This document shows, piece after piece, positions 5,260-25,981 of a stretch of 32,000 nt of DNA. Where the stretch lies: NCBI GenBank assembly GCA_041674405.1, contig JBAYVT010000003.1, positions 30,001-62,000 of the forward strand, in the 5' to 3' direction. A program made the position numbers and the translations under genes. This DNA comes from Patescibacteria group bacterium. GTDB taxonomy: Bacteria; Patescibacteriota; UBA1384; XYA2-FULL-43-10. The notes under the pieces are model-generated. The model saw only the letters and a list, made by a program, of their open reading frames with translations. It was not told the origin of the DNA and did no database searches. Within the stretch, counting starts at the first letter, position 1. Each line of letters starts with the position of its first letter.

Positions 5260-5745
5260 ATGACTATCACAATATTTATTCTACTTTTGTTGTTTCTTCT
5301 TGCCGGAATCGCCGGCACGTTTTTGGTGGTTTTACCGGGAATTCCTTTTATGTTCATTACAGTCCTTGCCTATGCAATTTTTGACCGCTTCCATCGAATA
5401 ACCGGGTGGAACATACTTTTTTTTGCCGCTTTGACCTTAGCCTCATTATTCATTGATTATCTTTCGGGGATTATGGGTGCAAAACTTTTTGGTGCTTCAA
5501 AATACGGCACGATTGGAGGAATTATCGGCGGATTAATTGGTCTTTTTGTCTTTCCACCATTTGGAATTTTCATTGGAATGTTTCTGGGAGTGATAATTTT
5601 CGAGGTAATGCTTTCAAAAAAATCAGTCACGAAATCAGTAAAATCCGGCACCGGATCGATATTGGGCTCCATCGCCGGCATTGTCATCAACCTGATAATT
5701 GCCCTGGCATTCCTCGTCAGTTTTATAGTTCTATATTGGAAATAA
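5260..5745 (+). CDS. DUF456-like membrane protein
   Basis: Four predicted TM segments with glycine-rich helices (GGIIGGLIGLFVFPPFGIFIGMFLG). I use the ATG at 5260; the ORF track starts at TTG 5254. TATAAT at 5246-5251 lies 8 nt upstream of the ATG. Confidence 0.55.
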   Translation: MTITIFILLLLFLLAGIAGTFLVVLPGIPFMFITVLAYAIFDRFHRITGWNILFFAALTLASLFIDYLSGIMGAKLFGASKYGTIGGIIGGLIGLFVFPPFGIFIGMFLGVIIFEVMLSKKSVTKSVKSGTGSILGSIAGIVINLIIALAFLVSFIVLYWK

Positions 5746-7255: not shown

Positions 7256-7297
7256 AACGTAACAATTCTTCCGCGACCGCGTAAAAAGTGTTACGTT
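7256..7297. repeat. 42-nt palindromic element, copy 1 (imperfect); probable terminator of the PaaX-like gene
   Basis: Sequence AACGTAACAATTCTTCCGCGACCGCGTAAAAAGTGTTACGTT. It starts directly after the stop codon at 7298-7300. On the minus strand it is followed by TTTTTTT. Confidence 0.7.
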
Positions 7298-7894
7298 TTA
7301 TTCTGAGATCAAATCTTCCTTAAACAAAATTCCACGATCAATGAATTCTTCAATAATATTTTGTTCTCCCTGAAAAATTTCCGAGATCATAATTACGACA
7401 TTTTCAGAAACTCCAAGCCTTTCAGATAATTCCGATATCTCCCGCGTGCATTCAAACGGATAAACATGCACGCTTTTTTGAATCTGAATAAAGCCAGCGT
7501 TTTTAATTGCTTTACGAAAAATATCTCTCTCATCCCGCATCTTCTCGGGAATATCAAATATTACAACTCTCCATTTTCGATCCCAAATCTCCGATCGTTT
7601 CACCCGAATATCAAAAGTCATTATTTTTTTGATATGGTTAATTCCCCTGGGTGTAATTTCAAGATATTTTTCTTTATCCCGGGTAAATGATTCAATATAT
7701 CCGTGCTTTTTGAGATAATAGATCTTTTGGCGTAGATTGATTTTAGAATTTTCGATTTCATCTTTTGCTGCCATAGCTGATTTTCTATAAACGGGGCTTG
7801 CTTCAAAAAAAGGCATAACCGTGGCATCGAATAATGCTAAAAGAATCTCTTTCGCGCTCAATTTTGCAATTTCTAAACTTTCTCTTTTTAACAT
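7298..7894 (-). CDS. PaaX-like transcriptional regulator (winged helix plus Cas2-fold C-domain)
   Basis: WDRKWRVVIFDIPEKMRDERDIFRKAIKNAGFIQIQKSVHVYP matches the PaaX C-domain pattern (W-x-W-x-V-x-FDIPE…R…GF…Q-SVW-x-P). I prefer the ATG at 7894 (MLKRESLE…); the ORF track extends to TTG 7972. Confidence 0.65.
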   Translation of the reverse strand: MLKRESLEIAKLSAKEILLALFDATVMPFFEASPVYRKSAMAAKDEIENSKINLRQKIYYLKKHGYIESFTRDKEKYLEITPRGINHIKKIMTFDIRVKRSEIWDRKWRVVIFDIPEKMRDERDIFRKAIKNAGFIQIQKSVHVYPFECTREISELSERLGVSENVVIMISEIFQGEQNIIEEFIDRGILFKEDLISE

Positions 7895-7895
7895 T

Positions 7896-7933
7896 TGTAA
7901 CAATTTTATCACGATCGTGATAAAATTGTTACA
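7896..7933. promoter_or_regulatory. Perfect 38-bp palindrome (42-nt element, copy 2) abutting the PaaX-like start codon; candidate operator
   Basis: TGTAACAATTTTATCACGATCGTGATAAAATTGTTACA equals its own reverse complement. It lies in the divergent region between the 7894(-) and 8031(+) genes, where no terminator is expected. Confidence 0.6.
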
Positions 7934-7963
7934 TTTTTGTTTTAGATCATTTGGATTATTATG

Positions 7964-7992
7964 TTGACACAAAAATAGCTTTGAACGATAAT
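7964..7992 (+). promoter_or_regulatory. Candidate promoter TTGACA-N17-GATAAT for the 8031 operon
   Basis: Hexamers lie at 7964-7969 and 7987-7992. SD AGGAGGG precedes the ATG at 8031. Confidence 0.5.
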
Positions 7993-8030
7993 GGTATTAG
8001 CGAATTATTCTTGATTAGGAGGGAATTTTC

Positions 8031-8531
8031 ATGCCACTCCCCACATGGGATGTTTTTATTGGGTTGGCATTTGTTATCGGCATTGCTTACGGCTTTATTT
8101 TGCGTCGTGAGAAAACGATTACCTTTTTGTGCTCAACATATATAGGCTTGGTTATTGCGTCCTCTTTTTCGCAATACGTTTTTGACCTCTTTAACGGCAA
8201 CAAAGTAGTAGCAAATCAGGTTTGGATTCATTCAAATGCCTCAACCTCGACCATTTCTATCGTTCTTCTGCTTCTCTCGTCATTTTTCATATCAGGAGCA
8301 ATAAATTCTACCGCCAAATCTGGTGGTGATTTATCACCCCTAGAAATTATTATTTACAGCGCACTAAACATGGCACTAATTGTCTCGTCAATCATTGGAT
8401 TTCTGGCCCCAGACAAAAGAGATGCAATATTGGCAGCTTCAAAGATAGGATCTTTTCTATATGGCACGAGAGGACTCTGGGTAATTATCCCTCCGATTGC
8501 CCTTGTCATCCTTAATTTTAAAAAGAAATAG
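8031..8531 (+). CDS. Integral membrane protein, unknown function
   Basis: Strong SD (taggagggaattttcATG). There are 4-5 hydrophobic segments. Confidence 0.6.
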   Translation: MPLPTWDVFIGLAFVIGIAYGFILRREKTITFLCSTYIGLVIASSFSQYVFDLFNGNKVVANQVWIHSNASTSTISIVLLLLSSFFISGAINSTAKSGGDLSPLEIIIYSALNMALIVSSIIGFLAPDKRDAILAASKIGSFLYGTRGLWVIIPPIALVILNFKKK

Positions 8532-8539
8532 GAGTGAGG

Positions 8540-8881
8540 ATGTATTTTCTTTTGCGTTGGATAATAAATACTCTGGCACTTTTAATTGCGGCATATCTAG
8601 TGCCTGGTGTTTCATTTTCTGGCTTTTGGTCAGCTTTGATTGCCGCGTTGATTTTTGGTTTGATCAATGCTGTGATACGGCCGATCATGATAATACTTAC
8701 TCTGCCCGTAAATCTGGTTACGCTTGGCTTGTTTACGCTTGTAATAAATGCCCTTATGTTCTGGCTAGCATCGGCAGTAGTCAAGGGGTTTACAGTAACA
8801 GGATTCTGGCCAGCTTTTTTCGGCGCATTGGTTTACTGGATCATTATTATATTGGTTAATCTTATCGAGAAAGCCGATTAG
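8540..8881 (+). CDS. Phage-holin-4/DUF360 (YvlD-like) family membrane protein
   Basis: LVPGVSFSGFWSALIAALIFGLINAVIRPIMIILTLPVNLVTLGLFTLVINALMFWLA matches the DUF360 pattern. The ATG at 8540 is preceded by GGAG; the ORF track starts at GTG 8534. Confidence 0.7.
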   Translation: MYFLLRWIINTLALLIAAYLVPGVSFSGFWSALIAALIFGLINAVIRPIMIILTLPVNLVTLGLFTLVINALMFWLASAVVKGFTVTGFWPAFFGALVYWIIIILVNLIEKAD

Positions 8882-8887
8882 CCAGCC

Positions 8888-8916
8888 TTGACCCTGACTC
8901 AAAAATAAGCTATAAT
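8888..8916 (+). promoter_or_regulatory. Near-consensus promoter TTGACC-N17-TATAAT for tRNA-Lys
   Basis: Hexamers lie at 8888-8893 and 8911-8916. A 9-bp leader hairpin (atgtttttg/caaaaacat, 8921-8943) precedes the tRNA. Confidence 0.6.
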
Positions 8917-8955
8917 CTGTATGTTTTTGGCGAACAAAAACATGAGTTAAATTCT

Positions 8956-9030
8956 GGATTGCTAGCTCAATGGTAGAGCAGTGGCCTTTTAAGCCATTGG
9001 TTCTGGGTTCGAGTCCCAGGCAATCCACCA
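8956..9030 (+). tRNA. tRNA-Lys (anticodon UUU), CCA encoded
   Basis: Cloverleaf: acceptor GGATTGC/GCAATCC, D-arm AGCTCAATGGTAGAGC, anticodon arm GTGGC-CTTTTAA-GCCAT, T-arm CTGGGTTCGAGTCCCAG, 3' ACCA. Confidence 0.93.
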
Positions 9031-9063
9031 AAAAAACTTTGACCTTGCGTCAGAGTTTTTTTG
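9031..9063 (+). terminator. Terminator hairpin after tRNA-Lys
   Basis: An 8-bp stem actttgac/gtcagagt (one G-U pair) is flanked by an A-run and a T-run. Confidence 0.6.
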
Positions 9064-9075
9064 TTGGAATTGGAC

Positions 9076-9104
9076 TTGAACATTTTATGATTTTATTGTA
9101 TTAT
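9076..9104 (+). promoter_or_regulatory. Near-consensus promoter TTGAAC-N17-TATTAT driving the G+C-rich unit
   Basis: Hexamers lie at 9076-9081 and 9099-9104 with an exact 17-nt spacer. The composition switches from AT-rich to G+C-rich immediately downstream. Confidence 0.55.
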
Positions 9105-9660
9105 TACGCGTGTCCCATGATCATAGCACACTTCGAAACAAGGGGCTGAGCGCATGGAGCCGGTAACAAAGTCTATTGAGAAGATCCTCGACCGGTTGCC
9201 GAGTAATCCCAATCCGGGATTCGGCATTGTCCTGATTTGGCTCTTGCTAAGACAGGACACTGGTGGTCGAGCGAAACGGTGCGACAGTGACCAGGAAGAT
9301 CTGACGATTGCGGCCAAAATGATCGTTCAGACCGGGAATGTCTTAGCATCCCTTGGGCTGATCCTGCACGCACAGCAGACCGAACCTCTGAGGGAGGTAT
9401 GCAACGACGAAGTACTCGCAGCAATACCCCCACGCGTGGCTACCAAGATTCATGAGGAAATCTTGGGTGCTGCAACTTCTACCCTGTTGGGAATGAAGAC
9501 CGATCGTCAACGGCGCTTTCACGTTAGAGACTATATCGCTCAAATTCCCTGCACAAATCCTCAAGACGCGGCCGAAAAGCCGCAAGAACCGCAACCTACA
9601 TCGAAGTAGAATACGAAGTACCGGTCGCTCCAGCTCACAAGCTGGAGCGCCGTTGTTTTT
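9105..9660 (+). other. G+C-rich transcription unit: either an orphan 151-aa CDS (9154-9609) or a large structured ncRNA
   Basis: Two 60-nt lines counted here have 32/60 G+C, against 18/60 in the adjacent lepA line. The unit is bounded by a promoter and a terminator. The plus-strand ORF has a G-rich first codon position and a possible AGGGG SD. ORFs of 74-107 aa also run on the opposite strand. Confidence 0.4.
9626..9660 (+). terminator. GC-rich hairpin plus T-run; shared convergent terminator with lepA
   Basis: The stem cgctccagc/gctggagcg (9626-9634 and 9641-9649) has loop tcacaa and is followed by ccgttgttttt. The lepA stop at 9659-9661 abuts it. Confidence 0.7.
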
Positions 9661-11440
9661 ACTCACTTCTTAGAACTTTTATAAAAACATCGGATGGAAT
9701 ATTTACCTTACCGATCATTTTCATTTTCTTTTTCCCCTTTTTCTGCTTGTCAAGAAGTTTGTTCTTACGAGTGACGTCGCCTCCATATAGCTTGGCAGTC
9801 ACATCCTTGCGCATAGCAGGAATTCTTTCAGAAGCAATGATTGTGGCCGAGATTGCCACCTGGATTTTAACTTCGAAATTCTGGCGCGGAATAAGATCTT
9901 TTAATCTTTCAACGATTCTTCGCGCTTCCTTCTGTGCTTTTTGCGAATTAATAATAAAACTCAGCGCGTCGACACGATCCTCAGCAATCAGAATATCGAT
10001 TTTAGATAGGTCCGCACTACGATAATCAATCATCTCATAATTAAGAGAGGCATACCCGCGAGAAATACTTTTTAGCTGGTCATAATAATCAATAATAAGT
10101 TCAGCAAGCGGAATTTCATACTTTATAACCACCCTATTATCATCAAAATATTCAGTATTTTTGTAAATTCCGCGCTTACTTTGCGTTAGATCCATGATTA
10201 CACCAATGAATTCTTTCGGAGTAATGATTTCGAGAGTAGCCCAAGGTTCAAAAATTTCGCGGTATTCGTGCGATGCTGGTAGATCGGCTGCCTTTTCAAC
10301 GATCCTTGCCTCCCCATTCAACATTGTTAATTTATAAATAACAGTCGGGCTAGTGATTACAAGATCAAGGTCAAATTCGCGTTCAAGGCGTTCACGAACG
10401 ATATCGAGGTGTAAAAGTCCAAGAAATCCGCAACGAAAACCATGGCCGAGCATTTCTGATCTCTCGGCCTCGTACGATAGCGAGCCGTCATTTAATTTAA
10501 GCTTTCCGATTGCCTCCTTGAGCTCGGGATATTTGTCCGAATCGGTACAGAATATCGAAGCATAAACAAACGGCTTAACTTTTTGATAGCCCGAAAGGGG
10601 AGAGACTGCTGGAATTTTTTTCTGCGTAATGGTATCGCCGACAGACGCTTCAGAAACTTCTTTAAATCCGGTTACAATATAACCAATTTCGCCCGATGAT
10701 AGGGGAGAGTGGGGGAAATATTTTGGTTTAAAATAGCCACACTCCTCTACTTTTCCCCCACTTTTAGTCTGCATCAAAAATATCTCGTCATTATTTTTTA
10801 TTTCGCCCGAAAACACCCGGACATAAGCAACTACTCCCCGATAGGGGTCATATACCGAGTCAAAAATTAAGGCTCTTGTCTTCTCTTCTCCCTCATCATT
10901 GGGTGCTGGTACGCGTTCAATTACTTCTTTCAAAATTTCTTCCACTCCTTCGCCGGTTTTTCCCGATGCATAGATAATTTCATTTTCACGACAACCAAGA
11001 ACTTTGATAATTTCATGAGCAACTTCTTCCGGACGAGCTGCCGGTAGATCAATTTTATTTACAACCGGTATAATCTCGAGATCATGGTCTATCGCCGCAT
11101 AAAGTGTCGAAAGGGTTTGGGCTTCAATGCCCTGAGTAGCATCAACAAGGAGGATCGCTCCCTCAACAGCTGCCAATGACCTTGAAACTTCGTATGAAAA
11201 ATCAACATGACCCGGGGTATCTATCAAATTCAAAATATGTTTGCTGTATTCCATGCGAACAGGTGCAAGCTTGATAGTAATGCCGCGCTCACGCTCAATA
11301 TCCATCTGATCAAGGAGCTGCTCTTTCATCTCACGTTTTTCAACCGTGCTGGTAATTTCCAGCATTCGGTCAGCCAGCGTTGACTTGCCGTGATCAATAT
11401 GCGCGATAATACAAAAATTGCGGATGTTTTTTTCTTCCAT
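9659..11440 (-). CDS. lepA: Elongation factor 4 (LepA)
   Basis: G-domain motifs AHIDHGKST, DTPGHVDF and NKIDL are present. The C-terminus is LepA-specific (…KLYGGDVTRKNKLLDKQKKGKKKM). Confidence 0.95.
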   Translation of the reverse strand: MEEKNIRNFCIIAHIDHGKSTLADRMLEITSTVEKREMKEQLLDQMDIERERGITIKLAPVRMEYSKHILNLIDTPGHVDFSYEVSRSLAAVEGAILLVDATQGIEAQTLSTLYAAIDHDLEIIPVVNKIDLPAARPEEVAHEIIKVLGCRENEIIYASGKTGEGVEEILKEVIERVPAPNDEGEEKTRALIFDSVYDPYRGVVAYVRVFSGEIKNNDEIFLMQTKSGGKVEECGYFKPKYFPHSPLSSGEIGYIVTGFKEVSEASVGDTITQKKIPAVSPLSGYQKVKPFVYASIFCTDSDKYPELKEAIGKLKLNDGSLSYEAERSEMLGHGFRCGFLGLLHLDIVRERLEREFDLDLVITSPTVIYKLTMLNGEARIVEKAADLPASHEYREIFEPWATLEIITPKEFIGVIMDLTQSKRGIYKNTEYFDDNRVVIKYEIPLAELIIDYYDQLKSISRGYASLNYEMIDYRSADLSKIDILIAEDRVDALSFIINSQKAQKEARRIVERLKDLIPRQNFEVKIQVAISATIIASERIPAMRKDVTAKLYGGDVTRKNKLLDKQKKGKKKMKMIGKVNIPSDVFIKVLRSE

Positions 11441-11528
11441 AACAGATGAATCTTAGCAGATTTTTACTCGGAAATCGAGTGTCTGGGAGATCAGCCATCT
11501 CCTTCAAGTCGAACTGCACACATTAAGA

Positions 11529-11570
11529 AACGTAACAATTCTTCCGCGGTCGTGGAAGAATTGTTACGTT
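11529..11570. repeat. 42-nt palindromic element, copy 3 (17-bp stem, 8-nt tip); terminator of nfo and/or element upstream of lepA
   Basis: Sequence AACGTAACAATTCTTCCGCGGTCGTGGAAGAATTGTTACGTT. The first 21 nt are identical to copy 1 except the last base. Confidence 0.7.
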
Positions 11571-11664
11571 TTTATATTTAACAAACAAATTAATTACAAA
11601 AGAAATTTACTCATGTAATACATTTAATAACTAGGATGCATTTACATTTATTTCAATAAATAAA

Positions 11665-12501
11665 TCAATCTAGTAGTTCGCGGAGAATTTTGAGATTATC
11701 TATATCACCCTTGCCCTTTATGCTGGGAGTTTCGAGAATTCCTGGCAGCTCTTTTAGTTTGGGGTGATTTACTATAACCTTAAATCCATTAATGCCGATG
11801 TATCCTTCGCCAATATCTGCATGACGATCACGACAAGAAGCAAATGGCACTGCTGAATCATTAAGATGCAAACAGATCAATCGGTCAAGGCCAATTTCTT
11901 TGTCAAATTCAGCAAGAGTATCATCGAGCCCGCCTTTAGTCGCAACATTGTACCCCGAACCGAATGCATGAGCTGTATCAAGCGTAACTTTGACTCTGTC
12001 GGAATCGACTTTTTTGATAATTTCCCCAAGTTCAGAAAATTTATCGCCAATAATGTCTCCCGCACCGGCAGAATTTTCCAATATTAGGAAAGGTCCCTCC
12101 GGGGAAGCAGCAAGGATATTTTTGATTGCCAGCACAATTTTGTCCATCACCTCAGAAAGCTTCCTTCCTTTGGTCGAACCAACATGAAAATTTGTGCCGA
12201 TAGCGTGAAGTGCTTTGGCCTTTTTCATATCGTCAATTAACGATTTTATAGATGCTTCGTAAAAGAATGGATTATTTGTTGCAAGGTTAATAAGATATAT
12301 ACCATGAATCATTACCGGATCGATTTTCGCTTTTTTATTTTTCTCCACAAAGCCCGCAACTTGATGCTCCGGAATAACAAGGGGATTCCAGCGCTGTGGC
12401 GCATTGGCAAAAATCTGCATGCATTCGCAGTGAGCTTCAACCCCGCGATCAATCGCATCAGAGAATGGTTCACGTGTAGAAATGTGCATTCCAAATTTCA
12501 T
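11665..12501 (-). CDS. nfo: Endonuclease IV (AP endonuclease)
   Basis: Xylose-isomerase-like TIM barrel with Nfo features (MKFGMHIS…QIFANAPQRW…HGIYLINLA…HLNDS…DRHADIGEGYIG). Confidence 0.88.
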   Translation of the reverse strand: MKFGMHISTREPFSDAIDRGVEAHCECMQIFANAPQRWNPLVIPEHQVAGFVEKNKKAKIDPVMIHGIYLINLATNNPFFYEASIKSLIDDMKKAKALHAIGTNFHVGSTKGRKLSEVMDKIVLAIKNILAASPEGPFLILENSAGAGDIIGDKFSELGEIIKKVDSDRVKVTLDTAHAFGSGYNVATKGGLDDTLAEFDKEIGLDRLICLHLNDSAVPFASCRDRHADIGEGYIGINGFKVIVNHPKLKELPGILETPSIKGKGDIDNLKILRELLD

Positions 12502-12507
12502 ATGCTC

Positions 12508-12861
12508 CTATTCGTCAAAACCAATTCTATTGAAATAATCATAGGAAATATTCTGCCCGTCCAAGAGTTCCAGAACTTTGTATTTCCCTCTTGTGAAAAT
12601 GTTTCCGTCATCTAAATAATGTGTAGCTTCCAGGATTTGCACACCAGCTAACGGGGGAGATAAAACTCCCTTACCCTTGGTTTCAACGAGAGGTACTTTA
12701 CCGTAAAGCCAATAATTCTTCTGATCTGACTTCAAAAATGGATAAATCTCTCCGATTTCCAATTTTTCCGGAATACATTCTTCCTTTTTTCTGTTTCCGT
12801 TTTTGTATTCGCTAATATTGCGAAGCGCCATATCCGGCGCGAATTCTACCGGTATACCCAT
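12508..12861 (-). CDS. Hypothetical protein (117 aa)
   Basis: It sits 6 nt upstream of nfo and 4 nt downstream of the preceding gene, so it is probably in the same operon. I recognise no motif. Confidence 0.5.
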   Translation of the reverse strand: MGIPVEFAPDMALRNISEYKNGNRKKEECIPEKLEIGEIYPFLKSDQKNYWLYGKVPLVETKGKGVLSPPLAGVQILEATHYLDDGNIFTRGKYKVLELLDGQNISYDYFNRIGFDE

Positions 12862-12865
12862 ATTA

Positions 12866-13282
12866 TTACTTAATTTTACTTAAGTCTCCGTTAATTATCA
12901 GCGGATTGATCATCGCGATTTCGAGTGTGTAAGGTTGGTTTTTGTCGATTGGATTAAGCAGAAAAATTTTCTTTTTTAGGAAATAGGCCACGCCAATTTC
13001 CATAATTACATTCGTTCCAAGATATCCGCTTATCCCTTTTTTCTCATTGTTGACAATAAGCATTGCATCACTCTCAGCGATTTTATTAAAAAAGCTTCTT
13101 ATTATGTCATATTCTTTCGAGAGGCGCAGTTCTTCTTCAAAATTGTTTTTGATCGAATTGTCTCTTACATAATGATCGATGTCATCAGTCGTTAAAACAG
13201 AATGCCCGGTTTTCTCCAAGTCATTTTTGATTCTCAAGATATCTTTGGCAAAGACCATACTGCCGGCAATAGTAATTTTCAT
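12866..13282 (-). CDS. Nucleoside 2-deoxyribosyltransferase-like (Rossmann-like) protein
   Basis: N-terminal KITIAGSM and a distal GYLGTNVIMEIGVAYFLKKKIFLL with a conserved-position Glu resemble the NDT-like family. The assignment is tentative. Confidence 0.4.
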   Translation of the reverse strand: MKITIAGSMVFAKDILRIKNDLEKTGHSVLTTDDIDHYVRDNSIKNNFEEELRLSKEYDIIRSFFNKIAESDAMLIVNNEKKGISGYLGTNVIMEIGVAYFLKKKIFLLNPIDKNQPYTLEIAMINPLIINGDLSKIK

Positions 13283-13905
13283 TTTAACTCCTTAAATTCC
13301 ACTTTCAGATTTTCTAAATTCAATATAGCATAATGGCCGGTTTCGGAGGAGGCGAGTTTGATAACTTTTGTTTGGCCCAGATAGCCGACGCCCCATTTCC
13401 AGTGCACATGGCCACAAATGTGGACAAGAGGTGCATCGGAGAATTTTCGTTCCGGCATCATTCTGGGGTCATCAAATTTTGATAAATTAATAATTCCCGG
13501 CGGCGGAACATGCGAGAGAAAAATTGATCCGGCAATGGCTTTTTTGTCTACGCTTCGCTCTCCTTCGTATTGTCCCGACCACGAAGCAGGGGAGCCGCCA
13601 ACTCCCGTAAAAGTCCGGCCAAACATTTCCACAATTTTCCCCTCAAGTGTTTTATATTTTGCAGACACTTTATAGTATGCGCGGCCAAAATCATTATTTC
13701 CCGGTACCCAGAAGAGAGGAATTTCGAGCTCGTCAATCATTTTGATAAATTTTTCGGCGTACCAAATCGGTTCGCCCATGTTCACGATATCGCCAGTAAA
13801 AAGAAGCAGATCTGCTTTCTCGCCCAAAACTGCTTGTTTGATTTTTTCGAGCCCTTTATTTGATGCATGCAAATCTGAAAAAAGAAAGGCAGTTTTTTCT
13901 TTCAT
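13279..13905 (-). CDS. Metallophosphoesterase (calcineurin-like)
   Basis: Motifs are SDLH(A), TGDIVNMG, VPGNNDF, SHVPP and CGHVH. It overlaps both neighbouring genes by 4 nt. Confidence 0.8.
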   Translation of the reverse strand: MKEKTAFLFSDLHASNKGLEKIKQAVLGEKADLLLFTGDIVNMGEPIWYAEKFIKMIDELEIPLFWVPGNNDFGRAYYKVSAKYKTLEGKIVEMFGRTFTGVGGSPASWSGQYEGERSVDKKAIAGSIFLSHVPPPGIINLSKFDDPRMMPERKFSDAPLVHICGHVHWKWGVGYLGQTKVIKLASSETGHYAILNLENLKVEFKELK

Positions 13906-14627
13906 AATGCCGTCCCAAGCAGATCTATTTCATGGGGCTTGAGCACGACTTCTTTAACTTCAATGCGCCCGATATCTGAAGTATAAGTGGAAATTTGATC
14001 GTCAAAATATTTATTTAAAGCATCTTTAATCGATTGAGGCAAAACAGCAACTCCAGAAGAAGCCTTTGAAAGTTCAATTTTTAATTTGCCATTTTCAGCT
14101 TTAGGAATCGCGACTATTGTTATAGGGAACGAAAAAAAACTATCGCTAGTTCTTCCGGAAATATAGACGCCGTCATTCTTGATTTCAAGAGACGATTTTT
14201 TAAGGGGAAAGTCAGCCGTACCCACACCCATAAAATTCGCAAGCTCAGATTCTGTTATCGGAATACTCACACTTTCGCCGCTTGTTTTGTCACTCAACTC
14301 TTTTACCACCTGGTCAGTAAGATACTGATCTGTATTTTTTCCATCCGAAACAATACCTTGCCGGGAAAGAGATCCTCGCAAATTCCATAGCCCATAAACC
14401 ATCAGAACAAATAATCCAGTGAAAATAATAAGCATAAATGCAACAAACGGCTTTTTACTTTTTCGCTTGCGGTCGAGTTCATTATAAAAATTGCTAAAAT
14501 CCTTGTTTGCAGATCCTTTGTCAGCATTTACTTCCGGACGAAAAATATGTGTATCCCGTCCTAAATTTATCCCGTCGATTTTTCGGCCATTATTATTGGA
14601 CTGGTTCCCCTTCAATTTCTTTTCCAT
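13902..14627 (-). CDS. Single-pass membrane protein with extracytoplasmic domain, unknown function
   Basis: There is one TM (FVAFMLIIFTGLFVLMVYGLW) after a basic N-terminus. It overlaps the murJ 3' end by 35 nt. Confidence 0.55.
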   Translation of the reverse strand: MEKKLKGNQSNNNGRKIDGINLGRDTHIFRPEVNADKGSANKDFSNFYNELDRKRKSKKPFVAFMLIIFTGLFVLMVYGLWNLRGSLSRQGIVSDGKNTDQYLTDQVVKELSDKTSGESVSIPITESELANFMGVGTADFPLKKSSLEIKNDGVYISGRTSDSFFSFPITIVAIPKAENGKLKIELSKASSGVAVLPQSIKDALNKYFDDQISTYTSDIGRIEVKEVVLKPHEIDLLGTAL

Positions 14628-16188
14628 TTATTTTCCGCTTTAGTGCCCATGAAATTTCTTCGAGTTTTAAAACGTAGGAAAGAGCCACAAAAATAACAAA
14701 ACCGAGAGCTAGTGTAAGCAATGTTTGTTCCAATACCCCGATAAATTTATTCATATTCACCAAATTGGCAAAATATAGCATGCCTTCTCGCGCAATAAAA
14801 CCAGTAATAGCAGAAATGATAACGATTTTTATGACTGAATTAATTACTTTATTAGATAACATCCCTCGATATTTTGCCACTAGAAGAACATACAGGAGAA
14901 TTAAATTAATATAGCTTCCGATTGTAAAAGAAAGCGCTAGCCCAGCTACTCCCATTTTTTGAGCCAGGGGATAAGCAATTGCTATGCTTACAGCTACCGT
15001 GATTATAGAGATGTACATGGGAGTTTTTGAATTTTTCATGGCATAAAAAGCTCTTGCCAAAAGAGGAATAAGCCCTTGGGCAAGAAGAGAAAGAGAGAAA
15101 TACCCAAGCGCAAGGGCGGTTGCCTTTGTGTCGCTCCAACCAAAACTACCCGATCCGAGGATAAGACGAATGATCTGAGCCCTGAGTAGAATGAAGGCAA
15201 CAGAAGTCGGGATAAGAAGATATGAAACTGTCCTGATCGTCCGATTCAAATAAAAAACAAATTTGTCGGTTTCATTTTTTGTAAATGCTGTTGTTAGTGT
15301 TGGAAATACTGCGGTTGCAAAAGATGTGCCCAGCACTACCACCGGCATCGTCTGGATATTATTTGCAAAATTAAATGCAGAAATTGAACCGATCGCCAAC
15401 GCCGAGCCAATCGCAGTATATACTAAAAGCATCAGTTGATTTACTCCCATACCAATAGTTCGCGGCAGCATTAGCCGGATAATTTTTTTAATCGACGCAT
15501 TTTTATAATCGAAAGAAAAAGTGTATTTGAAACCAAGTTTAAACAATGATGGTAGCTGAATCAGCATATGAAGAACTGCGCCAATTATAACAAAGTAAAC
15601 TACCCCGATGATTCCAATATTCCTTCCCAAAATAAACGTGCCCAAGATAATAGAGAGGTTATACACAAGTGGGGCAAATGAATAGGCAACGAAACGATTA
15701 AACGAATTAAGTACTCCGGAAAATATGTATGAAGCAGAGAAAAAAATCGGAGTTAACATCAAAATCCGAGCAAGCTCTGTAGTTTTTTGCATTTTTTCGA
15801 AAGAAAAATCCGGAACAACCAGTGGAGTAAGATATGGCATCAGGAAGAATAAAACAATAGCGGCAAAAATCATTATTACAGCTGCAATATTTAGAAGGAT
15901 ACTCGTAACTTTCCAGCCTTCTTCCATTTTATTGTTGCTGATAAAATCGCAAAAAACCGGAATAAATGCTGATGTTATAGCGCCTAAGATAAGAAAATTG
16001 AAAATAAGATCAGGTATACGAAATGCTGCAAAATAGATATCGAGTTGTGAAGTCGGAATATAACTTGCCAAAAAATGGTCGCGCAACATTCCTAGCACAT
16101 TGCTGATAGTCAGTGTAATAAGCAAAATTGCACTGGCCATGCGAACGCTATTTTCCGAGTGGAAAAAATTAGAGAATCGTTTTATCAT
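14593..16188 (-). CDS. murJ: Lipid II flippase MurJ
   Basis: 531 aa polytopic protein. It shows MurJ/MviN N-terminal features (…LGMLRDHFLASYIPTSQLDIYFAAFRIPD). Confidence 0.85.
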   Translation of the reverse strand: MIKRFSNFFHSENSVRMASAILLITLTISNVLGMLRDHFLASYIPTSQLDIYFAAFRIPDLIFNFLILGAITSAFIPVFCDFISNNKMEEGWKVTSILLNIAAVIMIFAAIVLFFLMPYLTPLVVPDFSFEKMQKTTELARILMLTPIFFSASYIFSGVLNSFNRFVAYSFAPLVYNLSIILGTFILGRNIGIIGVVYFVIIGAVLHMLIQLPSLFKLGFKYTFSFDYKNASIKKIIRLMLPRTIGMGVNQLMLLVYTAIGSALAIGSISAFNFANNIQTMPVVVLGTSFATAVFPTLTTAFTKNETDKFVFYLNRTIRTVSYLLIPTSVAFILLRAQIIRLILGSGSFGWSDTKATALALGYFSLSLLAQGLIPLLARAFYAMKNSKTPMYISIITVAVSIAIAYPLAQKMGVAGLALSFTIGSYINLILLYVLLVAKYRGMLSNKVINSVIKIVIISAITGFIAREGMLYFANLVNMNKFIGVLEQTLLTLALGFVIFVALSYVLKLEEISWALKRKINGKEIEGEPVQ

Positions 16189-16206
16189 ACCAGATCATAC
16201 TTTCTA

Positions 16207-18009
16207 CTATGTTTTCGCCTTAAAATATTTGAGAAAATCTTCTTCGTTAATTGTTTCTTTCTTTATCAGTTCGTCAGCCAATTTTTCAATGATTGATTTA
16301 TGGGTATCAATAATTTTCTTGGCTTTTTTTCTGCCTTCATCGATAAATCTGGAAACTTCTTGGTCGATTACGGCGGCAATATTTTCGCTATAATTGCGCT
16401 GCTCGGCAAGTTCTTTCCCCAAAAACGGCATTTCTTCCTTGTGGCCATAAGTCTGTGGACCTAATTTTTCAGACATTCCAAATTCAACAACCATCTTGCG
16501 CGCAAGAAGAGTTGCTCGTTTCAGGTCGTTTTGTGCTCCAGTTGTTATTTTATTTGAACCGAAAAATTCTTCTTCGGCAACGCGGCCCGCAAGAAGTGAA
16601 GCAATTTCGTCCTCAAAATAATCTTTGGCTTCGAGCCTGCGGTCTTCTGTCGGCAAATTCCAAGTATATCCTAGAGCCATGCCGCGAGAAACTATCGAGA
16701 TTTTGTGAACCGGATCGGCATTTGGCAAAATATGGCTAACAACAGCATGGCCTGACTCATGGATAGCGGTAATTTTCTTTTCATGGTCAGACATCTTCTT
16801 GCTTTTTCGCTCTGGGCCCATCATCACTTTCTCGATTGCCTCTTCCATGTTTTCTTGGGTTATGGTCTTGCGGCCAGCCCGAGCTGCTAAAATAGCTCCC
16901 TCATTTGCTAAATTTTTAAGATCAGCCCCAGAGAAACCGGCGGTTGTGGCGGCAATTCTTGAAAGATTAACATTTTTTTCGATTGGCTTATTTCGAGTAT
17001 GAATTTTTAAAATTTGTTCACGTTCGCTTCTGTCTGGAAGATCGATAGTAATGTGCCTGTCGAAGCGGCCCGGACGAAGAAGTGCTGGATCAAGTACATC
17101 TGGCCTGTTTGTAGCAGCCATGACGATGACGTTATCACCGGTATCAAAGCCGTCCATTTCAACCAAAATTTGGTTTAATGTCTGCTCACGTTCATCGTGG
17201 CTTCCACCGAGCCCAGACCCGCGCTGGCGGCCGATTGCATCCATTTCATCAATAAAGACGATTGCCGGTGCGCTCCTTTTCGCTTTAGCGAAAAGATCGC
17301 GCACTCGGGACGCACCAACACCAACAAACATCTCGACAAATTCAGATGCGGAAATTGAGAAGAAAGGAACACCTGCCTCACCAGCAACCGCCTTTGCAAG
17401 CAAGGTCTTACCGGTACCAGGAGGCCCCACAAGAAGGACTCCTCGTGGAATTTCTGCGCCCAAATCGCGAAACTTTTTTGGTGACTTCAAAAACTCGACT
17501 ACTTCGCGAAGTTCCTGCTTCGGTTCCAACAGCCCGGCGACATCATTAAATGTAGTTTTGCGCCCCAGTGAAAGACGGGCTCCAGATTTACCGAAACTCA
17601 TCGCCTTCATATTTTGCCCCTGGGCGGAACGAAGCATCCACCAAAAAAATGCGGCGATCAAAATCAAAGGCAAGAGGGTATATAGAAATATCGACGACCA
17701 GGCAACAGATGAGCTTGTGTCTACAACTTTGATATTGACCTTGTCGGATGTAATACCATATTCATTCAAGCCAACGCCATTTTCCTTGTATGCCTGCTCG
17801 GTACCTTCGCCCTTAACGTTAGCGGTAACCTGATTATCTTTCACCGTAACTTGGTCGATTTGGCCATCCTGGACCTGTTTCGCAATCTGCGAGATATCAA
17901 CCTGAGTTGGTGTTTTTGGCCGGCTGGCATAATAACTTCCGACAAGAACCGCTGCTATAAATATAATAATGATCCAATATACTGCACGGTTTCCAGATTT
18001 CTGATTCAT
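16207..18009 (-). CDS. ftsH: ATP-dependent zinc metalloprotease FtsH
   Basis: Two N-terminal TM segments, Walker A GPPGTGKT, Walker [12 protein letters not shown] and the zinc site HESGHA. SD AAGGAG lies upstream. Confidence 0.96.
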
Positions 18010-18024
18010 TAAGCTCCTTAGTCT

Positions 18025-19023
18025 TCAATTCTTAGTCTTCAATACAATGATTTTACCACGCTCAAGGCTAACCTGTAAATGATGGGGGAGAGGCAAACTT
18101 TTCCGTCCCTCTTTTTTATATAGTAGCGTTCGCACGTTTTCAATATGAGAATAGTTAATATCTTCACCGCCACCAAGGTACTCGACAGACAGGCGAAGGG
18201 TAAGTCGTGAAAGCGACGGGCTGAGAGTTGCCCATTTTTTATAATTAAGCACAATTTCACTATTACCCCTTTTTTCAATGATCTGCCTAAGTTTATCTTC
18301 TGTCACAGACTCAAGGAAATCATAATCGTCCTCGATAGCCCGCGACGTGCTTCCTAGTGCTTCAATAACATTGGGGTTGATTTTTTTAAGCTGTGGAAGG
18401 ATTCTGTGGCGAATTTTATTTCGCAGAAAATCCAAGTTAAAATTTGATTTATCTGTCCTGTACTTGATATTTTTTAATTTAAGGTATTCCAAAATATCTG
18501 TGCGTGAAAATTTGAGTAGGGGACGGATAAAATTTTCACGCTGAGAGGGGATAGATTTAAGCCCCTTTAAACCGGTACCTCTGATTAATCTCTGTACCAG
18601 GGTTTCGGCAAGGTCATTTGAATTATGTGCAAGAGCGATTTTGGCCTCTCCCCTTTCGGTTTTTAAAATTTTTTCGAAGAACTCATAGCGGGCATTCCTC
18701 GCTTCTTCTTCGCTGGCTTTTTTATTTTTTGGTTTATTGTTCCAGTCAGCTTCAATGAGTTCTACGCCATATTTTTGGCATAGTTTTTGGACAAATTTCT
18801 TGTCTCTCTCGCTCGCCGCTCCCCTCAACTTATGATTGAAATGGCATGCTTTTAAATTATTTTTTAATTTCGAGCGTAGAATTGCGAGAATATCAAAAAG
18901 GCAGACAGAATCTGGTCCGCCGGACAAGGCAACAATTACCGTGTCGCCTTCCCCTATCAACCTCTCAGCAATGATGTTTTTGTACACCTTGATAATTAAA
19001 TTTTTTTGTGAGATTTTTGGCAT
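18025..19023 (-). CDS. tilS: tRNA(Ile)-lysidine synthase
   Basis: PP-loop SGGPDS is present with the TilS layout (…LAHNSNDLAETL…). Confidence 0.88.
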   Translation of the reverse strand: MPKISQKNLIIKVYKNIIAERLIGEGDTVIVALSGGPDSVCLFDILAILRSKLKNNLKACHFNHKLRGAASERDKKFVQKLCQKYGVELIEADWNNKPKNKKASEEEARNARYEFFEKILKTERGEAKIALAHNSNDLAETLVQRLIRGTGLKGLKSIPSQRENFIRPLLKFSRTDILEYLKLKNIKYRTDKSNFNLDFLRNKIRHRILPQLKKINPNVIEALGSTSRAIEDDYDFLESVTEDKLRQIIEKRGNSEIVLNYKKWATLSPSLSRLTLRLSVEYLGGGEDINYSHIENVRTLLYKKEGRKSLPLPHHLQVSLERGKIIVLKTKN

Positions 19024-19125
19024 ATTTTAGCTCCCAACGCCTCAAAATTCTAGCACAAAATTACGTTCATATCCATAGAAAATGTCTGACTAATTGTTTT
19101 TGTATTTGGTATTTACTCTTTAATG

Positions 19126-19167
19126 AACGTATTAAAACCCTCACGATCGTGAGGGTTTTAATACGTT
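19126..19167. repeat. 42-nt palindromic element, copy 4 (perfect palindrome)
   Basis: AACGTATTAAAACCCTCACGATCGTGAGGGTTTTAATACGTT equals its own reverse complement. It lies in the divergent region between tilS(-) and the tRNA promoter(+). Confidence 0.7.
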
Positions 19168-19190: not shown

Positions 19191-19219
19191 TTGACTTTTC
19201 GAACAAAATTTTATATACT
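19191..19219 (+). promoter_or_regulatory. Candidate promoter TTGACT-N17-TATACT for the tRNA pair
   Basis: Hexamers lie at 19191-19196 and 19214-19219. The first tRNA starts at 19235. Confidence 0.55.
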
Positions 19220-19234
19220 TTTTAAGTAATATTC

Positions 19235-19311
19235 TGCGGGGTGGAGCAGCCCGGTAGCTCGCATGGCTCATAACCATGAGGTCGTTGGTTCAAATCCAAC
19301 CCCCGCGACCA
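19235..19311 (+). tRNA. tRNA-Met (CAU), initiator-like
   Basis: GCGGGGTGGAGCAGCCCGGTAGCTC…CTCATAA…GGTCGTTGGTTCAAATCCAACCCCCGCGACCA closely parallels bacterial tRNA-fMet. The 1-72 pair is weak (U-G). There are only two G-C pairs next to the anticodon loop rather than three. Confidence 0.85.
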
Positions 19312-19319
19312 AATTTAAA

Positions 19320-19384
19320 AGTTTCTAGTTGCTAGATACTAGTGGCTAGAATTTTTTAACTAGAAACTATAAACTAATAACTAG
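19320..19384 (+). repeat. CTAG heptad array / 11-bp inverted repeat in the inter-tRNA spacer
   Basis: CTAG occurs at 19325, 19332, 19339, 19346, 19360 and 19381, all in one 7-nt register, with CTAT at 19367 and CTAA at 19374. agtttctagtt (19320-30) pairs with aactagaaact (19358-68). Confidence 0.6.
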
Positions 19385-19385
19385 C

Positions 19386-19462
19386 GGCAGGGTAGCTCAG
19401 ATGGTTAGAGCGTGGGACTCATAAGCCCGAGGTCGTGGGTTCGATCCCCACCCCTGCTACCA
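19386..19462 (+). tRNA. tRNA-Met (CAU), elongator-like
   Basis: GGCAGGGTAGCTCAGATGGTTAGAGC…ACTCATAAG…GGTCGTGGGTTCGATCCCCAC…CCCTGCTACCA. The D-arm resembles elongator Met. The A31-G39 and G1-U72 pairs are non-canonical. Confidence 0.8.
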
Positions 19463-25906: not shown

Positions 25907-25981
25907 GGGCCCATAGCTCAGTGGTAGAGCGCCCGGCTCATAACCGGTTGGTCGCAGGTCCGATCCCTGCTGGGCCCACCA
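25907..25981 (+). tRNA. tRNA-Ile2-like (anticodon CAU, probable lysidine substrate)
   Basis: GGGCCCATAGCTCAGTGGTAGAGCG-CCCGG-CTCATAA-CCGG…GGTCGCAGGTCCGATCCCTGCTGGGCCCACCA. The 3' half closely resembles E. coli ileX, including the C4-G69 and C5-G68 pairs. The T-loop reads TCCGATC, which is unusual at position 55. Confidence 0.75.

Follow-up and report, generated by a model that had tools for sequence, protein, structure and literature searches.

A family of palindromes of about 40 bp was analysed in a 32,000-nt stretch of DNA from a Patescibacteria group bacterium (the window, C3:30001-62000 of a 929-kb, 98.7%-complete genome; the letter C with a number denotes a contig, and positions given without a contig are those of the window). 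Two of the palindromes bracket a gene for a 198-residue protein related to the regulator PaaX, and the elements are probably the cognate double-stranded DNA sites (operators) of this protein. The initial annotation had offered either a family like the repetitive extragenic palindromes (REP) or one recognised by a protein. The second option is the best reading, with the product of the bracketed gene as the candidate. The bracketed-gene layout recurs across the ultra-small Patescibacteria and no paper describing it was found. On the evidence of the sequences, gene and sites are rather likely to form a variant of the PaaX-type repressor-operator system that has not been described before. A literature search returned nothing relevant on PaaX together with Cas2, on PaaX in Patescibacteria or on Cas2-like proteins with helix-turn-helix regulators.

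Palindrome family in the window and in the genome

The four palindromes first described in the window, and a looser fifth, were all located where they had been reported, and three of these rank among the longest inverted repeats of the window in a repeat search. The features of the window, followed by all copies in the list from an nhmmer profile other than by window position, are as follows; the C3 entry includes the five copies of the window.

2236-2277: looser family member AATGTAGGAAAATCGCCACGATCGCGATAAAATTCCTACATT (nhmmer E 2e-7), 16 nt past the uvrA stop and 28 nt before a TTGCTA-16-TATAAT promoter
7256-7297: downstream bracket copy, imperfect with 16-17 of 20 arm pairs, variant arm AACACTTTTTACGCG
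7298-7894, minus strand: gene for the PaaX-like protein, 198 aa, bracketed by the copies at 7256-7297 and 7894-7935
7894-7935: upstream bracket copy with a perfect 38-bp core at 7896-7933, ending 1 nt before the ATG of the PaaX-like gene
7903-7932, minus strand: predicted promoter of the PaaX-like gene, from a consensus match alone (score 9/12), wholly within the palindrome
11529-11570: solo copy with 20 of 21 pairs, between an AP-endonuclease-like gene and lepA
19126-19167: solo copy of the TTAAAACC sub-family, a perfect 42-bp palindrome between the tilS start and a tRNA-Met promoter
C1:107192, C1:208843 and C1:232325: copies from the nhmmer profile
C2:19637: copy from the nhmmer profile
C3:3956, 5333, 9297, 32236, 37256, 37894, 41529 and 49126: copies from the nhmmer profile on the contig of the window, the last five being those listed above at 2236, 7256, 7894, 11529 and 19126
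C5:29291, 105929 and 139218: copies from the nhmmer profile

The four copies first described do lie upstream of minus-strand starts, as had been reported, at distances of 117 nt (SDR), 1 nt (PaaX-like gene), 88 nt (lepA) and 102 nt (tilS). At 19126 the arrangement is divergent solely on account of two plus-strand tRNA-Met genes (19235 and 19386), and the copy there is located 23 nt upstream of the -35 box of the tRNA-Met promoter. Its single sibling is C2:19637. The TTAAAACC arm type was found in none of the 43 other genomes of the order searched, and a cognate gene for this sub-family was not found in this genome. The promoter ahead of the two tandem tRNA-Met(CAT) genes (19235-19311 and 19386-19462, stretch 19191-19462) is near consensus, TTGACT-17-TATACT, and a third tRNA-Met gene is present in the window at 25907-25981.

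A genome-wide pattern search, as suggested in the initial annotation, was carried out with AACGTA-N10-CNCGNNCGNG-N10-TACGTT and returned 9 sites in the genome. The reversed pattern gave 0 matches, and so did the strict pattern in 40 relatives of other genera. With the nhmmer profile 15 copies were found genome-wide, with E values from 1e-13 to 2e-7 and clearly separated from noise, so the four palindromes first noticed are only a part of the family. All 15 lie between genes, and about 91% of the genome is coding sequence. The closest pair, 638 bp apart, is the one that brackets the PaaX-like gene, and all 15 copies are singlets. The members are not a product of chance and have their common sequence by descent rather than by convergence, which bears out the dispersed family proposed at the outset. 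A metagenome scan with the exact arm AACGTAACAATTCTTCCGCG gave 0 matches.

Outside the window, at C3:3956-9338, two copies with identical 40-nt left flanks form an 89-nt direct repeat. Together with a third copy at 5333 they partition this stretch with genes of 372 aa and 1170 aa.

A truncated PaaX-type protein

The product of 7298-7894 is, as modelled, a truncated PaaX-type protein that consists of an N-terminal winged helix followed by a Cas2-fold (PaaX_M) dimerisation domain. Pfam family PF20803, the PaaX central Cas2-like domain, was matched with an E value of 6.7e-21. Among the NCBIfam models, TIGR01573 (cas2) reached 26.4 bits (cutoff 24.5) and TIGR02277 (PaaX) matched at 1.4e-8, and several PADLOC Cas2 models matched at 1e-6 to 1e-7. 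An AlphaFold2 model of the protein had a predicted local distance difference test (pLDDT) score of 89. The best Foldseek match to this model was E. coli PaaX, 8a39 (probability 1.0), followed by many Cas2 chains (probability 0.95-0.99); SSO8090 and SSO1404 were among the fold matches. The phmmer alignment to 8a39 covers query residues 54-172. No match to PaaX_C, the C-terminal ligand domain of PaaX, was observed in Pfam, and the protein stops about 25 residues past the Cas2-like domain, with 198 aa as compared with 316 aa in the sequence of 8a39. With ATG-7894 read as the start codon, homologues align from residues 2-3 onwards.

The Cas2 motifs VIFDIPE, with the beta-1 Asp (D114), and QKSV were found to be invariant or near-invariant in 48 sequences, and D114, Q139 and S141 are invariant. 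E. coli PaaX has SE at the FD position, whereas the present protein retains both FDIP and QKSV.

In the window the PaaX-like gene has as neighbours lepA, tRNA-Lys and the genes for a holin-like protein and an SDR. When 147 neighbouring proteins were tallied by Pfam family, varied housekeeping genes were seen, with no paa genes among the 25 commonest families and no conserved partner gene among the 147. Local synteny of the paralogue was not found within ±1.5 kb. A scan of IMG/VR with the protein profile returned no relatives, no copy of the module being found in the viral contigs searched. Clustering at 50% identity gives about 3,160 clusters for the family in public data. Of 44 genomes in the order, 35 have homologues; the paralogues number 135 in all and 0-15 per genome.

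Distant homologues from Parcubacteria lineages (loci L082-L131) start with about 20 residues of strongly hydrophobic character, for example ILLLISAGAAIPAILVAPN, at the place where close relatives have an amphipathic helix. This hydrophobic start could be a membrane anchor or a buried helix.

Conservation of the bracket in Patescibacteria

Both the gene-palindrome bracket and its co-variation with the protein were found across Patescibacteria. In loci of the same order, a palindrome of 30-48 bp was present both upstream of the gene and just past its stop in 18-20 of 21 cases. In 77 loci from diverse Patescibacteria, a repeat common to the upstream and downstream flanks with a score of at least 13 was observed in about 62; control regions mostly scored 6-14. 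Most bracket pairs are direct repeats that share their asymmetry, and the downstream copy begins from -3 to about 70 nt from the stop in the homologous loci. The arms differ between genomes and between paralogues. Around the genome's second paralogue (C1:75188-75814) the bracket is formed by a separate family, family B, with CGTCGAAATATGAACGATCGTTCAATATTCGACG and 5 copies. At this locus (L007, C1:74510-75883, outside the window) family B CGTCGAAATATGAACGATCGTTCAATATTCGACG also occurs past the next two small genes, giving a row of palindrome, gene, palindrome, genes and palindrome, and a similar family is present in the relative G002.

A covariance model, also suggested in the initial annotation, was built with 18 pairs and a 4-nt centre and run on the genomes of the order. 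It matched in 21 of the 35 paralogue-bearing genomes, and the 9 genomes without a paralogue gave 1 match in total. The Spearman coefficient between paralogue number and number of matches was 0.64, the genomes not being independent of each other. Among the 82 sites listed, 30 were no more than 300 nt away from a paralogue gene; such zones account for about 0.4% of the sequence.

The relative G036, which lacks the PaaX-like paralogue, has at C13:10149-10184 (L146) the element AAAAAGCCTCACGATCGTGAGGCTTTTT, an ordinary-looking bidirectional terminator with the CACGATCGTG tip. The tip motif alone is therefore not diagnostic of the family.

Architecture of the site

Arm complementarity was measured over 126 bracket sites. 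It was 86-91% at ±2-4, within a GC-rich centre, 63-68% at ±6-11, within linkers of 7-27% GC, and 80-92% at ±12-16, within the outer boxes. The site is thus tripartite, with a GC-rich centre that is mostly CGRYCG, AT-rich linkers and outer inverted boxes at ±12-17, spanning about 34-42 bp in all. The centre was CGATCG in 24 sites, CGACCG in 14 and CGGTCG in 8, and other 6-bp palindromes were observed too. In the family described here the inverted boxes are ACGTAAC and GTTACGT and the centre is CGCG-RY-CGCG. Among its 12 main-family copies the number of variants per site was 0.33 in the boxes, 0.75 in the centre stem and 2.1 in the linkers. The looser copy at 2236-2277 has pairing in the outer boxes and the centre and none in the linkers.

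The operator of E. coli PaaX is TGATTC-N27-GAATCA, and PaaX represses its own promoter through steric hindrance (PMC9493321, a review). The box spacing in the present family is a few bp shorter than this N27. The sites have the long-spaced geometry described for E. coli PaaX, and their architecture fits a dimeric protein better than a hairpin.

The co-varying arms had initially been taken as a sign of selection on a hairpin or cruciform. Compensatory arm changes are real in the genome, as seen in C1:232325 when compared with the consensus and in C2:19637 when compared with the copy at 19126. The statement that each copy is self-complementary did not extend to the whole family, 6 of the 15 copies being imperfect and 5 of those carrying the same asymmetric arm. 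In the wider family, with its poorly complementary linkers, selection on a hairpin was not upheld. Between the two copies of a bracket, 159 one-sided differences were counted versus 33 compensated ones. The latter represent 33 of 88 double changes, which is about the fraction given by chance. No excess of G.U over A.C mismatches was found on the sense strand (38:29 in downstream copies and 35:31 in upstream copies). General selection for a hairpin thus seems to be lacking, as does any at the RNA level.

Promoter context and proposed mechanism

The predicted promoter of the PaaX-like gene has a -35 box GTAACA (7932-7927), an 18-nt spacer and a TG-extended -10 box TGATAAAAT (hexamer 7908-7903). 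GTAACA-18-TAAAAT with the TG extension is present on both strands of 7896-7933. The predicted transcription start is located 1-2 nt before the ATG, which would make the mRNA practically leaderless. In homologous loci the palindrome is found directly after a TATAAT box or over the -35 region of leaderless-looking genes, and several loci have TATAAT 6-8 nt before the ATG. At loci of the leaderless type, transcription from the gene's own promoter would leave out the upstream copy. As the upstream copy in the window holds the -35 box, the -10 box and the start site of its own gene, binding is predicted from its position to shut the gene off.

The downstream copy abuts the stop codon of the PaaX-like gene and is followed by 7 T on the minus strand, on which its RNA folds with -18.9 kcal/mol. 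With seven U on the correct strand, this copy can terminate the PaaX-like gene. Many cognate sites in other genomes lack a U-tract on either strand, for example TTTGCGGAAA...TTTCCGCAAA. The downstream copy is not an operator of the neighbouring gene, since 41 of 73 loci have a convergent gene next to it.

From these data we infer that the PaaX-like protein is the binder, that duplex DNA is its target and that the outcome is autorepression. Of PaaX, the protein would retain no more than the N-terminal part, with the winged helix and the Cas2-fold dimerisation domain as its two modules. In a dimer, the two winged helices would read the outer inverted boxes, about 30 bp apart, with the dimer core placed over the GC-rich centre CGCG-RY-CGCG and the AT-rich linkers lying between the contacts. 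Binding to the upstream copy would shut the gene's own promoter, like PaaX at its Px promoter, and the bound dimer would cover the whole promoter of the practically leaderless gene. The second copy at the stop codon may here double as an intrinsic terminator. The 13 other copies would represent solo sites that arose as pasted copies of a polar unit some 50 nt long, were tolerated only between genes and keep boxes and centre intact. Such solo sites might act as roadblocks to read-through (insulation), add further regulation or do nothing.

The proposed system is similar to PaaX, the repressor of the phenylacetate catabolon in E. coli and Pseudomonas, in its winged helix and Cas2-like dimerisation domain (PF20803, with 8a39 as the best structural match), in the long-spaced inverted-repeat site of about 40 bp and in the position of a site on the regulator's own promoter, here a predicted one. 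It differs from PaaX in several respects. The phenylacetyl-CoA-binding C-terminal domain is lacking in the shorter protein, FDIP and QKSV are kept, and varied housekeeping genes are found nearby in place of paa genes. The site has a conserved CGRYCG centre, a second site follows the stop in most loci and extra solo sites have arisen by copy-paste. Finally, a genome may hold as many as 15 paralogues, and the arms are particular to each of them.

Outside the window, at C4:89143-89186, two 16-bp palindromes TGTAACATATGTTRCA flank a TTGACA box and resemble an operator pair on a promoter. They have a TGTAACA half-site in common with the 7896 copy and are otherwise unrelated to it. Across the whole genome, dozens of unique perfect palindromes of 30-44 nt were observed between genes, in the form A-run, GC-stem and T-run. 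These are probably bidirectional intrinsic terminators and a general feature of the genome.

Origin and distribution of the solo copies

The solo copies are products of copy-paste. The copy at 11529 (C3:41529) is identical to C3:5332-5375 over 44 nt, including a common derived mismatch in the centre, GCGGTCGTGG. The asymmetric arm AACACTTT, common to five imperfect copies, is always on the same side when the copies are oriented by their T-run. The repeated unit is therefore polar and about 50 nt long, (g)cAAACGT...ACGTTTtt(a). The orientation of the T-run relative to the flanking genes was random, 5 being sense and 6 antisense. When the intergenic classes were tabulated, 11 copies were in co-directional, 3 in divergent and 1 in convergent regions, which is what random placement gives (64/24/13% of intergenic DNA). 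Among the non-bracket copies, 6 of 13 were located within ±35 kb of the PaaX-like gene (P about 2e-4). No target-site duplication was visible at the copies.

In seven genomes of the same family no such palindrome was found in the spacer upstream of lepA, and one of these genomes retains the same upstream gene with a spacer of only about 40 nt before lepA. Identity at unrelated sites, random orientation and unconserved positions together show spread by copy-paste and argue against plain terminators. Cognate solo copies numbered about 1-7 in five relatives checked. Eight of the solo copies in relatives were inspected and comprised 3 in convergent and 2 in divergent regions, 2 just past a stop and 1 within a predicted open reading frame. 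The genes beside solo copies in four relatives have orthologues in this genome, none of which is within 1.5 kb of a copy.

Observations that do not fit an operator

Several observations weigh against the assignment of the palindromes as operators of the PaaX-like protein. A classical operator leaves the post-stop copy, seen in nearly every locus, unexplained. At some loci the symmetry has been kept through divergence, linkers included: the changes at L067 are 6 compensated and 0 one-sided, 5 compensated ones were counted at L062, and C1:232325 and the pair formed by C2:19637 and the copy at 19126 likewise stay symmetric. Protein contacts alone do not predict such kept symmetry, so arm-to-arm conversion or a hairpin or cruciform state is needed. 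Central segments were also found flipped between copies (GGTC/GACC), as were inner segments in L027. Kept symmetry and flips together suggest arm-to-arm conversion or inversion within the palindromes. The Asp at the Cas2 catalytic position, D114, is invariant in the 48 sequences and could point to an enzymatic role besides binding. As regards the solo copies, their positions are not conserved between genera, 3 of 8 in relatives lie between convergent genes, and those of this genome are randomly spread over the intergenic classes. With random classes and unconserved positions, no conserved regulon is visible.

Alternative explanations

The main rival to the operator, although an unlikely one, is a catalytic system similar to REP and their associated tyrosine transposases (RAYT). 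In this case a Cas2-fold enzyme would recognise the palindrome as a hairpin or cruciform and nick or copy it, thereby generating and preserving the dispersed solo copies, the palindromes being domesticated or selfish mobile hairpins. As in the REP and REPINs of Gammaproteobacteria, a single-copy gene is flanked by its own palindromes, cognate copies are dispersed in intergenic DNA, the families are genome-specific and a GTA(G/A) motif is present at the arm end. The identical 44-nt copies at unrelated sites with their common derived mismatch, the polar unit in random orientation to genes, the lineage-specific positions and the clustering near the gene would all fit such an enzyme, as would the flipped segments, the perfect symmetry kept at some loci and the invariant Asp. 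However, the RAYT Y1 HUH transposase (PF01797) gave no match in the 98.7%-complete genome, controls being positive, and the bracketed protein is itself not an HUH/Y1 transposase. The REP-like label of the initial annotation therefore holds for the layout and fails for the enzyme. To our knowledge, no nuclease activity is known for the Cas2-like domain of PaaX. Copy numbers are low, about 15 here and 2 to about 17 sites per genome instead of hundreds, and each copy stands singly where REPINs are doublets. Conservation falls on the centre and the outer boxes and does not extend over the whole stem. Across the wider family, linker complementarity is not maintained, compensated changes occur at about the chance rate, and target-site duplications are not visible.

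An undescribed partnership of protein and repeat that is widespread in Patescibacteria is likewise improbable. Here the winged-helix Cas2-fold protein would recognise, and maybe duplicate, flip or spread, its own palindromes of about 40 bp. By analogy, the direct-orientation repeats around the gene may be comparable to a CRISPR repeat duplicated around a new spacer, the solo copies having been seeded elsewhere. The protein has the ferredoxin-like fold, the beta-1 Asp and the Q-S-V motif of CRISPR-Cas Cas2 and passes the TIGR01573 cutoff, and in both systems an insert lies between directly oriented, partly palindromic repeats of 30-45 bp. Unlike in CRISPR-Cas systems, Cas1 is absent (PF01867, no match in the genome), there is no repeat-spacer array, the copies are dispersed, the "insert" is the gene itself and a winged helix is joined to the Cas2 fold. 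None of the data show integration activity.

The solo copies could instead be scars left by deletion of palindrome-gene-palindrome modules through direct-repeat recombination, like solo long terminal repeats, with TTAAAACC as the relic of a lost paralogue. The mostly direct bracket copies with the same asymmetry, the rise of palindromes per genome with paralogue number, the variation of that number from 0 to 15 between genomes and the TTAAAACC sub-family without a cognate gene fit this explanation. It is nevertheless quite unlikely. Repeated insertion of whole modules would be needed, yet the paralogues within a genome are old and divergent. The main-family solo copies are near-identical with a single cognate gene, so that many identical recent modules would be required, and no relative was found with the module at any solo position checked.

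Very unlikely is the explanation that the palindromes are ordinary bidirectional intrinsic terminators with sequence in common through local duplication, the link to the PaaX-like gene being incidental. Like the bidirectional terminators of small AT-rich genomes, the copies are long and strong inverted repeats with A- and T-rich flanks, mostly past gene ends. The RNA hairpins of the perfect copies are very stable (-26 to -32 kcal/mol), and 12 of 15 copies are located past a gene end, mostly closer to the upstream stop than to the next start. The copy past the PaaX-like gene has its 7 U on the right strand, the genome is full of long palindromic terminators, and the relative without the gene has a terminator with the CACGATCGTG tip. 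In contrast to such terminators, the sites have a common sequence and a cognate gene for a DNA-binding protein. Three of the 15 copies are in divergent regions, as random placement predicts (24%), the T-run is sense in 5 and antisense in 6, and cognate palindromes elsewhere often have no U-tract. A bracket and a co-variation over more than 60 loci cannot be incidental. The earlier view that these are not ordinary terminators agrees with the random intergenic classes and with T-runs that follow gene direction no more often than they oppose it.

A Cas2-fold domain acts as an RNase in some Cas2 and VapD proteins. Binding or cleavage by such a domain of palindromes transcribed as 5' and 3' hairpins, controlling mRNA stability or translation, would fit the strong perfect 20-bp stem, the several homologous loci in which the palindrome right after the -10 box would form the mRNA 5' end and the downstream copy the 3' end, and the presence of RNases in the Cas2 family, with SSO8090 and SSO1404 among the fold matches, but it is hardly probable, as the upstream copy at leaderless-type loci, the window included, is upstream of or across the start site and would lie outside the mRNA, G.U pairs are not in excess over A.C on the sense strand, the linkers of the wider family are poorly complementary, and the winged helix and PaaX-like spacing point to duplex DNA.

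Replication-terminus sites of the Ter/RTP type were dropped as candidates, there being no switch of GC skew or gene-strand bias at the C3 cluster. An integron attC site or a prophage boundary was also considered; the end boxes do not seem to fit the attC core sites.

Significance

Very little is known about gene regulation in Patescibacteria (candidate phyla radiation, CPR). If the partnership of protein and repeat were true, it would be the functional counterpart of REP/RAYT with another enzyme at its base, and it could form an evolutionary bridge between PaaX-type regulators and the relationship of Cas2 with CRISPR repeats. A conserved Cas2 fold with an Asp at the catalytic position, beside palindromic repeats and with no CRISPR system, is a puzzle in itself. 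If the palindromes are operators of the PaaX-like proteins, as seems probable, the genome sequence itself gives the binding site of each protein, every gene being flanked on both sides by its candidate site. The family would then be a ready-made set of candidate orthogonal protein-site pairs, and some of the long "terminator-like" palindromes in these genomes may be protein sites instead. Should the solo copies prove functional, their spread by copying would be an unusual way to wire new sites into a regulon.

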